A stretch of 32,000 nt of DNA from Cupriavidus necator (GTDB taxonomy: Bacteria; Pseudomonadota; Gammaproteobacteria; Burkholderiales; Burkholderiaceae): the NCBI RefSeq assembly GCF_016127575.1, contig NZ_CP066019.1:360001-392000 (forward strand), in the 5' to 3' direction. How positions within the stretch are numbered: the stretch's first letter is position 1; each line of letters opens with the position of its first letter. Of this stretch, positions 28,708 through 30,309 are shown piece by piece. Position numbers and translations under genes: made by a program. Below the pieces are notes generated by a model, which was not told where the DNA came from, did no database searches, and saw nothing but the letters and a program-made list of their open reading frames with translations.

Positions 28708-29106
28708 TCAGGCCAGCGTGAAGGTCGGCACCGGCGCGCCGCCTTCGGACGGCGCGAAGCGCAGTACCACTTTCTGGCCGATGCGCACGGTGTCGAGATC
28801 GCAATCGACGATATGGCTCATGACCGTTACGCCTTCGTCGAGCTTGACGTAGGCGATGCAGTACGGCGTGGGGCCGGCACGGCGCGTGACGCTGAACGAG
28901 TAGATCGTGCCGCGCCCGCTCGCTTCCTTCCAGTGCGTGCTGCCCATGCAGAACGGGCACAGCGGGCGCGGATACCAGTGCGGCTTGCCGCAGCTGTCGC
29001 AATGCTTGACCAGCAGGCGGCCCTCGCGGGCGGCGGCCCAGAATTCTGCGTTGTCGGGGTGCTCGATGGGCGGGTTGTACGGGATGGGGGTGTGGGGAGT
29101 CGTCAT
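28708..29106 (-). CDS. Zn-ribbon / OB-fold protein (DUF35 family)
   Basis: 132 aa. Four-Cys ribbon CDSCGKPHWYPRPLCPFC followed by an OB-fold-like segment (GTIYSFSV...YCIAYVKLDEGV...IGQKVVLRF). It lies 36 nt downstream of the thiolase-fold gene. Confidence 0.85.
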   Translation of the reverse strand: MTTPHTPIPYNPPIEHPDNAEFWAAAREGRLLVKHCDSCGKPHWYPRPLCPFCMGSTHWKEASGRGTIYSFSVTRRAGPTPYCIAYVKLDEGVTVMSHIVDCDLDTVRIGQKVVLRFAPSEGGAPVPTFTLA

Positions 29107-29142
29107 GGCGATGTCCGAATGCGGGCCGACGCGGCGCCGGCG

Positions 29143-30309
29143 TTATTCACGTTCCAGGATGAGGGTGGCGCTGCCGTGGCGGGCGCCCAGCAGGCCGCCG
29201 GTGCCGTGGGCGAGCGCCAGGCGGCAGTCGGGTACCTGCACCGCCGGGTGGGCCTCGCCACGCAGCTGGCGCACGGCCTCGATGACCTTGGTGATGCCGC
29301 CGCGGTTGGCCGGGTGGTTGTTGCACAGGCCGCCGCCATCGGTGTTGAACGGGAGCTTGCCCACGCCGGAGATCAGGTTGCCGTCCATCACGAACTTGCC
29401 GCCTTCGCCTTTCTTGCAGAAGCCCAGATCTTCGAGTTGCAGCAGCACGGTGATCGTGAAGCTGTCGTAGATCGATGCGTACTGGATGTCGGCGGGCGTG
29501 ACGCCGGCCTCGGCGAAGGCCGCGGCGCCGGAGAAGCGTGCGCCCGACCAGGTCAGGTCGACTTCGCCGCCAAGCTGGCCCTTCACGTACTCGCCGGCGC
29601 CGAGGATCTTCACCTTGGGGCGCTTGAGCTTCGCGGCGATCTCCGGGCGCGCGACGATCAGCGCGCCGCCGCCATCCGACACCACGCAGCAGTCCAGCTT
29701 GCGCAGCGGGTCCGAGATCATGGGCGAGTTCAGCACGTCCTCCACCGTCACCACGTCGCGCAGCATGGCGTTCGGGTTGTGCTGCGCGTGGTGCGATGCC
29801 GCCACCTTGATCCACGCGAGCTGTTCGGGCGTGGTGCCGTACTCGTACATGTGGCGCATGGCGACCATCGCGTAGTTGTTGACGGTCACCTGGCCGAACG
29901 GGCTTTCGAAGGGCAGGTCGGGGGTGTTGTCGCCCCAGTTGCGCGCCTTGGTGCCGCTGGAGCCTTCCGAGCGCGGACGGCCGGCGAGCGTGATCAGCGC
30001 CACGTTGCACTTGCCCATGGCGATGGCCTGCGCGGCATGCGATACATGGGCCAGGTAGGACGAGCCGCCGGTTTCGGTCGAGTCGACATGGCGCACATTC
30101 AGGCCCATGTAGTCGATCATGTTGATCACGCCGAGGCCGGGAGCATCGCCGGCGCAGAAGTAGCCGTCGACATCGGCCAGCGTCAGCCCGGCGTCTTCCA
30201 GTGCGCCCTTGGCGCTTTCCGCGTGGAGCTGCGCCACGGTCTTGTCGGGTGCCTTGCGGGTGGGGTGCTCGTAGGCGCCTACGATGTATGCCTTGCCTTT
30301 GATGCTCAT
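29143..30309 (-). CDS. thiolase-superfamily (SCP-x/lipid-transfer-protein-type) protein lacking the catalytic cysteines; predicted Ltp2-like retro-aldolase or non-thiolytic partner of DUF35
   Basis: Lies in ORF 29143..30735. The start is taken as the ATG at 30309 (MSIKGKAYIVGAYEHPTRK). The fold-level motifs of SCP-x-type thiolases are present: NTDGGGLCNNHPANRGG and the GTGG tail. The nucleophile position reads VDSTETGGSSYL (Glu, not Cys), and HDCF is replaced by YDSF. Confidence 0.8.
   Translation of the reverse strand: MSIKGKAYIVGAYEHPTRKAPDKTVAQLHAESAKGALEDAGLTLADVDGYFCAGDAPGLGVINMIDYMGLNVRHVDSTETGGSSYLAHVSHAAQAIAMGKCNVALITLAGRPRSEGSSGTKARNWGDNTPDLPFESPFGQVTVNNYAMVAMRHMYEYGTTPEQLAWIKVAASHHAQHNPNAMLRDVVTVEDVLNSPMISDPLRKLDCCVVSDGGGALIVARPEIAAKLKRPKVKILGAGEYVKGQLGGEVDLTWSGARFSGAAAFAEAGVTPADIQYASIYDSFTITVLLQLEDLGFCKKGEGGKFVMDGNLISGVGKLPFNTDGGGLCNNHPANRGGITKVIEAVRQLRGEAHPAVQVPDCRLALAHGTGGLLGARHGSATLILERE

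Follow-up and report, generated by a model that had tools for sequence, protein, structure and literature searches.

The window analyzed here is a 32,000-nucleotide (nt) stretch of the Cupriavidus necator genome (contig NZ_CP066019.1, positions 360,001 to 392,000), and near its end, on the minus strand, it holds two adjacent genes encoding a thiolase-fold protein and a stand-alone DUF35 protein. The thiolase-like protein lacks both catalytic cysteines of the thiolases, keeps the tyrosine and the glycine shared by the steroid side-chain aldolases Ltp2 and Sal, and is most likely an uncharacterized relative of those two enzymes. The reading that we favor, and to which we give an even chance, is that the pair acts as a DUF35-dependent retro-aldolase, a C-C lyase that has the thiolase fold, consists of two kinds of subunit, and would take a 3-hydroxyacyl coenzyme A (CoA) as its substrate.

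The genes and motifs on which this reading turns are listed below. An earlier note on this DNA had given the coordinates of the two genes, the gap between them, and the positions of the motifs (DSTETGGS at residues 76 to 83, YDSF at 281 to 284, and NNHPANRGG at 330 to 338), all of which are correct.

29143..30309, minus strand: thiolase-fold protein gene, 388 amino acids (aa), ATG start, N terminus MSIKGK; CAJ95205.1, "acetyl-CoA acetyltransferase"
29107..29142, minus strand: in-frame spacer between the thiolase-like and DUF35 genes, 36 nt, from the sequence
28708..29106, minus strand: stand-alone DUF35 gene, 132 aa; CAJ95204.1, public name "DNA-binding protein"; predicted partner subunit
30058..30084, minus strand: nucleophilic-elbow region D76-S84 (DSTETGGSS), with Gly82 at 30064..30066 and Glu79 at 30073..30075
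29458..29469, minus strand: YDSF motif Y281-F284, equivalent to HDCF of SCP2 thiolases, YDCY of Sal, and YDHF of Ltp2
29296..29322, minus strand: NNHPANRGG loop N330-G338, with His332 at 29314..29316 and Cys329 just before the loop at 29323..29325

Loss of the catalytic cysteines

Residue equivalences were examined by phmmer searches against solved structures, by a MAFFT alignment (the query, 87 full-length representatives of 50%-identity clusters, and four Protein Data Bank [PDB] sequences), by alignment of PDB sequences with the family hidden Markov model (HMM), and in an AlphaFold2 model with a mean predicted local distance difference test score (pLDDT) of 93. Pfam matches the thiolase-like protein to Thiolase_C_1 (2e-52). 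In both the MAFFT and the HMM alignments, Gly82 falls in the column that holds the nucleophile cysteine of the P. furiosus thiolase and Gly89 of CtSal, the Sal of Comamonas testosteroni. The earlier note had put Glu79 in the place of this cysteine, which was an alignment error: Glu79 lies three residues before the nucleophile position, the genuine P. furiosus thiolase has a glutamate there too, and the two alignment methods, together with the start of the elbow helix at residue 81 of the model, point to Gly82 and rule Glu79 out as the replacement.

The remaining motifs had been assigned correctly. YDSF, taken in the note to stand where SCP2 thiolases have HDCF, matches column for column YDCY of CtSal, YDHF of TcLtp2 (the Ltp2 of Thermomonospora curvata), and HDAF of the P. 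furiosus thiolase, and Ser283 sits where the acid/base cysteine of an SCP2 thiolase would be. The GHP-like motif is kept, with His332-Pro333 aligning with GHP of the P. furiosus thiolase; the same column contains Tyr344 in Ltp2 and Gln352 in Sal. The column of His368 is, we presume, the acid/base cysteine position of the classical CxG motif.

Both catalytic cysteines are replaced, as the note had claimed, by Gly82 and Ser283. Seven cysteines occur elsewhere in the protein (positions 52, 101, 207, 208, 298, 329, and 362), none of them at the nucleophile position, and there is no cysteine anywhere in residues 53 to 100. C52, C101, and C207/C208, which the note had named as possible occupants of that position, are ruled out by alignment. 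With no cysteine to carry an acyl-enzyme, ping-pong thiolysis would be impossible.

Family membership and conservation

The thiolase-like protein belongs to NCBIfam NF006010/PRK08142, scoring 776.4 bits against a cut-off of 462, with residues 1 to 388 on profile positions 1 to 388. Its relatives number 11148 (1145 at E <= 1e-30) among 1.84 billion representatives of 50%-identity clusters, and in a species-level genome set at least 593 occur among the matches listed, the first 600 for the pattern. The 87 representatives used for alignment are the full-length proteins within the best 150 of the 11148 relatives. Position 82 is glycine in 80 of these 87 and cysteine in none; Tyr281 is present in 78, Asp282 in all 87, and His332 in 65, and position 283 is serine in 26, alanine in 23, and cysteine in 22.

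A scan of one genome per species recovered orthologs of 70 to 90% identity in Beta-, Alpha-, and Gammaproteobacteria, Rokubacteria, and Methylomirabilota. Among 85 orthologs, G81, Y281, D282, S283, N322, D324, N331, H332, P333, R336, and C208 are invariant, and Gly82 is found in at least 84. Cys329 also occurs in 84 of the 85 but is mostly serine across the wider family, and position 79, although nearly always acidic among orthologs (aspartate in 46, glutamate in 36), is variable in the wider family. The active-site motifs lie within the 38% of positions that are invariant among orthologs of 70 to 100% identity, evidence in favor of a functional active site.

The DUF35 partner

The smaller protein has the DUF35 architecture that had been read from its sequence, with Pfam matches to zf-ChsH2 (2.9e-13) and OB_ChsH2_C (8.5e-21) and a zinc ribbon of the pattern C36-x2-C39-x10-C50-x2-C53 (28948..29001) followed by the OB fold. 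In 83 of 84 loci, a stand-alone DUF35 gene comes directly downstream of the thiolase-like gene and in the same orientation; the one other locus is cut off by a contig edge. The synteny is obligate. This pairing and the occurrence of Gly82 in 80 of the 87 representatives, with cysteine in none, form a pattern that is not due to chance. The identities of the two proteins to those of the query covary (r = 0.89), and 76 of the 83 DUF35 copies retain all four zinc cysteines. The best PDB relatives of the DUF35 protein are ChsH2(DUF35) (6ok1_B, 1.5e-15) and the DUF35 domain of Shy (9myr_B, 1.5e-12); that is, aldolase-bound DUF35 domains outrank the archaeal and BbsA DUF35 proteins. From this gene pairing and these relationships, we infer that the thiolase-like and DUF35 proteins form a complex.

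The 7 other orthologous copies carry substitutions at three of the four zinc-ribbon cysteines (C39T, C50S, and C53T), suggesting that the zinc site is dispensable in that subset.

Relationship to known thiolase-fold enzymes

By sequence and by fold, the relatives of the thiolase-like protein fall in the same order of nearness: 4U4E, CtSal (9MYR), TcLtp2 (6OK1), the true thiolases (P. furiosus, Methanothermococcus, and BbsB), and then TbSLP and the SCP2 thiolases. A Foldseek search with the AlphaFold2 model ranked 4U4E, 9MYR_A, and 6OK1_A ahead of the true thiolases, and the sequence E values are 7e-93 for 4U4E, 1e-56 for CtSal, and 3e-43 for TcLtp2. The nearest characterized structures by either measure are aldolases, which supports an aldolase activity here.

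The closest solved relative, 4U4E, is a "putative thiolase" of Sphaerobacter thermophilus with 46% (Foldseek) or 49% (MAFFT) identity, and it is the nearest of the sequences compared to 71 of the 87 family representatives. It shares the GGSS elbow and the YDSF, LDCC, and HP motifs, but has alanine at position 79 and serine at the position of Cys329. No functional study of 4U4E was found in the literature beyond the deposited structure, and it therefore provides a structure and not a mechanism.

CtSal, together with CtShy(DUF35), is the bile-acid C5 side-chain aldolase of C. testosteroni, likewise a proteobacterium. Its catalysis relies on Tyr302 and Cys304, the variants C304A, C304S, and C304H being inactive, and it has a glycine at the position of the nucleophile cysteine, Gly89, whose backbone touches the substrate hydroxyl (PMC12329534). 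The thiolase-like protein resembles CtSal in its thiolase fold (Foldseek TM score, 0.90; 35% identity), in the glycine at the nucleophile position (Gly89 = Gly82), in the tyrosine of the YDxx motif (Tyr302 = Tyr281), and in having a zinc-ribbon/OB-fold DUF35 partner, although CtSal binds its own and the partner here is predicted from gene pairing. It differs in that the essential Cys304 is Ser283, invariant among orthologs, and Gln352 is His332, and the oxyanion-hole Gln161 of Sal is not conserved. Moreover, in the Sal complex the DUF35 domain forms the C terminus of the MaoC hydratase Shy and carries a zinc site of the Cys3His1 type, whereas the present one is encoded by a separate gene and is of the C4 type, and the present pair lacks a steroid-degradation context.

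TcLtp2-ChsH2(DUF35) is the steroid C3 side-chain aldolase of T. curvata, in which Tyr294 serves as the base and Tyr344 as the acid, with His296 in the oxyanion hole (PMC12329534). Common to TcLtp2 and the present protein are the thiolase fold (32% identity), a Cys-free Gly-rich elbow, the tyrosine of YDHF (Tyr294 = Tyr281), the LDCC motif that contains C207/C208, and a C4-type DUF35 whose top PDB match is ChsH2(DUF35) itself. In contrast, the general acid Tyr344 is replaced by His332 and His296 by Ser283, the DUF35 of Ltp2 is fused to the hydratase subunit ChsH2, and Ltp2 is actinobacterial and belongs to a steroid (igr) operon. The window contains no steroid genes and no ChsH1/ChsH2-type hydratase context, and the NCBIfam lipid-transfer-protein models score the protein below cut-off (e.g., NF005892, 221 versus 469).

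The SCP2-type and DUF35-associated thiolases compared (the zebrafish and Leishmania SCP2 thiolases, BbsAB [7PXP], and the archaeal thiolase [6ESQ/7YVY]) share the fold, the GHP histidine, and the dimer architecture, and BbsAB and the archaeal complex also have a DUF35 partner. Unlike the protein described here, the true thiolases have the nucleophile cysteine of CxS and, in SCP2 thiolases, that of HDCF. TbSLP of Trypanosoma brucei (PDB 5AB4-7) resembles the present protein in its Cys-less nucleophile position and YDxF tyrosine, but it retains the cysteine of its YDCF motif, has no DUF35 partner, and is only 24 to 25% identical. The authors of the Sal study propose TbSLP as an aldolase (PMC12329534).

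Judged from these alignments, the thiolase-like protein matches both aldolases where they agree and neither where they differ: the tyrosine and glycine are shared, but serine stands for Cys304 of Sal and histidine for Tyr344 of Ltp2 or Gln352 of Sal, so that the likeness extends only to features that the two aldolases have in common. The earlier proposal of an Ltp2-like C-C lyase, and not a thiolase, is accordingly the best-supported reading as regards the type of reaction, but the enzyme is not of the Ltp2 type in catalytic detail, given the changes of Tyr344 to histidine and His296 to serine.

Proposed reaction

In the retro-aldolase reading, DUF35 subunits, each with a zinc ribbon and an OB fold, would lie on either side of a dimer of the 388-aa catalytic subunit, an arrangement like that of Ltp2-ChsH2(DUF35) and Sal-Shy(DUF35), and the complex would cleave a 3-hydroxyacyl-CoA by a retro-aldol reaction to acetyl-CoA (or propionyl-CoA) and an aldehyde or ketone. 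Tyr281 is the predicted catalytic base and would take the proton from the beta-hydroxyl, which the backbone of Gly82 would position. The thioester enolate might be stabilized by His332, the histidine kept from the thiolases, together with backbone amides close to G371-G372. The proton for C-alpha would come from neither a Sal-type cysteine nor an Ltp2-type tyrosine; the candidate donors are His332, His368, Cys329, and water.

In addition to the missing cysteines, the ranking of structural relatives, the DUF35 partner, and the constraint on the active site, these points support aldol cleavage: the catalytic-base tyrosine and the hydroxyl-contacting glycine of both known aldolases are conserved, and the ortholog in C. 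metallidurans lies in an igr-like gene cluster that has no dehydrogenase. Several observations weigh on the other side. The protein has no counterpart of the second catalytic residue used by either known aldolase, and Ser283 is the equivalent of the inactive C304S variant of CtSal. A short-chain dehydrogenase/reductase (SDR) lies within six genes of the pair in 27 of 78 loci, including 16 of the 24 with a hydratase, and an aldolase route needs no SDR. No aldehyde dehydrogenase was detected near the orthologs in a crude scan of the neighbors for two PROSITE aldehyde dehydrogenase motifs, and 37 of the 78 loci, with no acyl-CoA genes nearby, have an uninformative context. Finally, no published function or experimental data for the NF006010/PRK08142 family (fitness data included), and no functional study of the large clade that holds the protein, were found in the literature; a single DUF35 match was a false one, to DUF3584. 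Three of these points leave room for the alternatives: the frequent SDR neighbor, the failure to detect an aldehyde dehydrogenase, and the loss of the second catalytic residue.

Gene context in other genomes

The context of the pair was surveyed in 84 loci, and neighbors within six genes were counted over the 78 genome loci. The most frequent were SDRs (27 loci), acyl-CoA dehydrogenases (ACADs; 17), MaoC (16), CoA-transferases (12), and enoyl-CoA hydratases (ECHs; 11). The SDR found in 16 of the 24 hydratase-bearing loci is of the MFE-2 type, likely a 3-hydroxyacyl-CoA dehydrogenase, and a canonical thiolase is mostly not nearby, suggesting that the pair often takes the place of the thiolase in an otherwise full set of beta-oxidation genes. 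Representative arrangements are as follows.

C. metallidurans, 88% identity: paired ACADs, thiolase-like protein, DUF35 protein, double-hotdog MaoC hydratase, and CoA-transferase
B. pseudomallei, 86% identity: C. metallidurans-type gene set plus an SDR and a canonical thiolase
Halomonas and Paraburkholderia, 72 to 76% identity: SDR (Halomonas only), ADP-forming synthetase, LigB, and RraA-like protein, with a Rieske protein in Burkholderia/Paraburkholderia loci
Bradyrhizobium, 70 to 72% identity: the pair, then MaoC, SDR, and a DHDPS-family protein; an IOR-like protein is also found

The C. metallidurans cluster has an igr-like gene order, with no dehydrogenase or thiolase within 10 kb, but its ACADs are PimC/PimD-like and its CoA-transferase is of the dicarboxylate type. 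This order parallels the logic of the dehydrogenase/hydratase/aldolase set that removes steroid side chains (PMC12502768). The earlier suggestion that neighboring hydratases supply the substrate does not fit the immediate operon partners in the window, which are a DUF2889 protein and an acyl-CoA synthetase and not hydratases.

The substrate would probably be a non-steroid carboxylic acid imported via TctC-type receptors, and might be a dicarboxylic acid or one bearing a ring, with a hydrated intermediate that ordinary beta-oxidation cannot handle, a hint that comes from the TctC receptors, the PimC/PimD-like dehydrogenases, and the dicarboxylate-type CoA-transferases. A more specific assignment from the gene context of the 84 loci was dropped because that context is too variable.

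In four loci (L070, L071, L082, and L084, from Paraburkholderia, Halomonas, Variovorax, and Burkholderia), the pair occurs in arrays that also encode an ADP-forming synthetase, a family III CoA-transferase, and paired ACADs, together with RraA-like proteins and an extradiol dioxygenase of the LigB type; the Burkholderia H160 locus (L084) further encodes a LigXa-like Rieske oxygenase. The composition of these arrays suggests that the side chain of an aromatic acid is shortened ahead of ring cleavage.

Alternative readings

In a second reading, which we consider unlikely, the pair acts on an acyl-CoA by some other C-C chemistry that involves no covalent intermediate, either the cleavage of a 3-oxoacyl-CoA through attack by water or directly by CoA or the decarboxylation of a malonyl-type (2-carboxyacyl) CoA. 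It draws on the dehydrogenase-type SDR found in 16 of the 24 loci with a hydratase, where a canonical thiolase is usually lacking; on the CoA-transferases and acyl-CoA synthetases that often adjoin the pair and could reactivate an acid product; and on two residues, the oxyanion-hole histidine kept from the thiolases and the acidic residue 79 conserved within the ortholog group. Carboxylated substrates are also plausible in view of the PimC/PimD-like ACADs and the dicarboxylate-type CoA-transferase. The weight of residue 79 is reduced by its variability across the wider family and by the glutamate of a genuine thiolase, and the C. metallidurans-type clusters do not have the dehydrogenase. With respect to decarboxylation, the Cys-less TbSLP decarboxylates malonyl-CoA, weakly and slowly, but CtSal is without malonyl-CoA decarboxylase activity (PMC12329534).

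Cleavage of 3-oxoacyl-CoA without an acyl-enzyme, in complete beta-oxidation-type clusters (paired ACADs, MaoC, and an MFE-2-type dehydrogenase), we rate lower still, as improbable. Water or free CoA would attack directly, aided by Tyr281, His332, and the acidic residue 79, and if this were true, the pair would represent a noncovalent "thiolase" mechanism, not known from the thiolase fold and widespread in Proteobacteria. We know of no thiolase-fold enzyme shown to cleave a 3-oxoacyl-CoA without a cysteine, which counts against it.

A catalytically dead scaffold that, with DUF35, organizes other enzymes in the manner of PhlA/PhlB in PhlABC would account for the loss of both canonical cysteines, and DUF35 proteins do scaffold multienzyme complexes (the thiolase/HMG-CoA synthase complex and PhlABC). 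We regard such a pseudoenzyme as very improbable: the lining of the former active site (Y281, D282, S283, N322, D324, N331, and H332) is invariant in orthologs and the pair, which has no conserved third partner, often stands alone, both of which argue against a scaffold, and the nearest Cys-less relatives are active enzymes.

Least probable of all is the genuine thiolase of the public annotation with another cysteine (C207/C208, C329, or C52) as its nucleophile, since ping-pong thiolysis needs the elbow cysteine and a conventional thiolase is thus very unlikely; the fold, the GHP histidine, a DUF35 partner like those of BbsAB and the archaeal thiolase, and the conservation of C208 (85 of 85 orthologs) and C329 (84 of 85) are in its favor, but the elbow is glycine in 80 of the 87 representatives and cysteine in none, LDCC is common to the proven aldolase TcLtp2, C329 is serine in most of the family, and the NCBIfam models for BbsB (153 versus 750) and the archaeal thiolase (168 versus 600) fall far under cut-off.

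Significance of a retro-aldolase assignment

Thiolase-fold aldolases with DUF35 partners are already established for steroid side chains (Ltp2 and Sal), and the idea of a DUF35-paired aldolase is not new; the structure of a homolog (4U4E) has been available since 2014. Aldol-lyase activity on C24-branched sterols has likewise been proposed for Ltp3 and Ltp4, and in ibuprofen catabolism, a thiolase-like protein paired with IpfE (DUF35 fold) has a proposed role in side-chain removal. What is distinct here is the residue set Gly/Tyr/Ser/His, the stand-alone C4 DUF35, and the lack of a steroid context.

If the retro-aldolase reading is true, a large and widespread family is misannotated as acetyl-CoA acetyltransferase, including one of the many "beta-ketothiolase homologues" counted in C. 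necator H16, the model organism for polyhydroxybutyrate. Tyrosine with the retained thiolase histidine would then be a third catalytic solution beside Tyr/Tyr (Ltp2) and Tyr/Cys (Sal), and the catabolism of ordinary carboxylic acids would join that of steroid side chains as a setting for DUF35-dependent aldol cleavage. Enzymes of this kind are attractive as biocatalysts that form or cleave C-C bonds, and the crystal structure of a homolog of 46 to 49% identity (4U4E) makes the family directly testable.

The surrounding gene array

The pair lies within a same-strand array that runs, in order, from a 114-aa open reading frame (ORF) through the DUF2889, thiolase-like, and DUF35 genes to an ADP-forming acyl-CoA synthetase. 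The thiolase-like protein is an exact match to a protein of C. necator H16, in which the DNA of the window belongs to chromosome 2 (AM260480.1, about 454 to 475 kb). An AGGAAG ribosome-binding site precedes the ATG of the thiolase-like gene, and a scan for promoters and terminators between 26 and 32 kb of the window found nothing.

31005..31349, minus strand: 114-aa ORF with no assigned function, 18 nt upstream of the DUF2889 gene
30381..30986, minus strand: DUF2889 protein, 201 aa, directly upstream of the thiolase-like gene; Pfam DUF2889, 7.8e-40; CAJ95206.1
26552..28657, minus strand: ADP-forming (NDP-forming) acyl-CoA synthetase, 701 aa, final gene of the array; Pfam CoA_binding, Succ_CoA_lig, and ATP-grasp_5

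The synthetase is akin to the acetate, 3-hydroxypropionate, and 4-hydroxybutyrate-CoA ligases but scores under their NCBIfam cut-offs. An ADP-forming synthetase occurs near the pair in 7 of 86 loci, and this linkage is confined to some lineages. DUF2889 is a same-strand neighbor of the pair only in C. necator/oxalaticus-type loci. The 114-aa ORF has no NCBIfam match; it is a gene in the H16 record and has a counterpart of 54% identity in a second Cupriavidus locus.

The DUF2889 protein, named "MobB" in some records, has an invariant set of His12, His56, Cys85, Cys118, His120, and Cys165 among 41 homologs, and its GCTHLTELL motif contains Cys118 and His120; this set of residues suggests a metal or cofactor site. 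In Metapseudomonas and Burkholderia, DUF2889 lies beside a MalT-type regulator and not beside the thiolase-like/DUF35 pair. Its AlphaFold2 model (pLDDT, 91) matches no PDB fold significantly (best E value, 0.01; TM score, 0.22), and literature searches on DUF2889 turned up nothing bearing on the thiolase-like family. That DUF2889 might be a hidden hydratase is unsupported, in view of the confident model without a PDB match and the MalT-side location in other genera.

A GC-rich inverted repeat (GGCGGCGCG-CAC-CGCGCCGCC) lies at about 28670..28695 (minus strand), inside the 50-nt spacer between the stop of the DUF35 gene and the start of the synthetase gene. No T-run follows the repeat, which is absent from the output of the terminator scan; it might be a modulator of read-through into the synthetase gene or a REP-like element. 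Convergent to the end of the synthetase gene is an MqsA/HTH_3-type antitoxin-like gene (26168..26458, plus strand; 96 aa), which divides the operon of the pair from NMO/ECH genes and, in the H16 record, is adjoined by a 50-aa ORF.

A possibly linked cluster and other genes

A second cluster in the window, at 16075..21216, is possibly linked to the pair.

16075..17034, plus strand: SDR, PRK07791-like (Pfam/NCBIfam)
about 17108..18283 and 18299..19432, plus strand: PimC/PimD-like paired acyl-CoA dehydrogenases (large and small)
19429..19899, plus strand: MaoC hydratase, single-hotdog
20206..21216, plus strand: TctC receptor

Pair-adjacent SDRs of Burkholderia, Halomonas, and two metagenome-assembled genomes share 50 to 60% identity with the SDR of this cluster, and in a second Cupriavidus strain, the counterpart cluster and its MalT-type regulator abut the pair. 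The cluster follows the same heteromeric ACAD plus MaoC logic as the steroid ChsE1-ChsE2/ChsH system, but its genes are of the pimeloyl-CoA dehydrogenase type.

A MalT-like regulator of 1303 aa (11800..15711, plus strand) has an N-terminal HTH_23, AAA_16, and a C-terminal GerE/LuxR domain. A 52%-identical regulator adjoins the DUF2889/thiolase-like/DUF35/synthetase array of another Cupriavidus strain (L006), suggesting that the regulator may control these clusters.

Further acyl-CoA modules, each with a TctC/Bug receptor, are located at 23..10377 and 20206..22323, and there are five TctC genes in the 32 kb. The first of these regions comprises an ACAD-ACAD-SDR set with a second ADP-forming acyl-CoA synthetase (23..5323, plus strand), a LysR regulator (5376..6443, minus strand), and an SDR-ECH-family III CoA-transferase-TctC set (6498..10377, minus strand).

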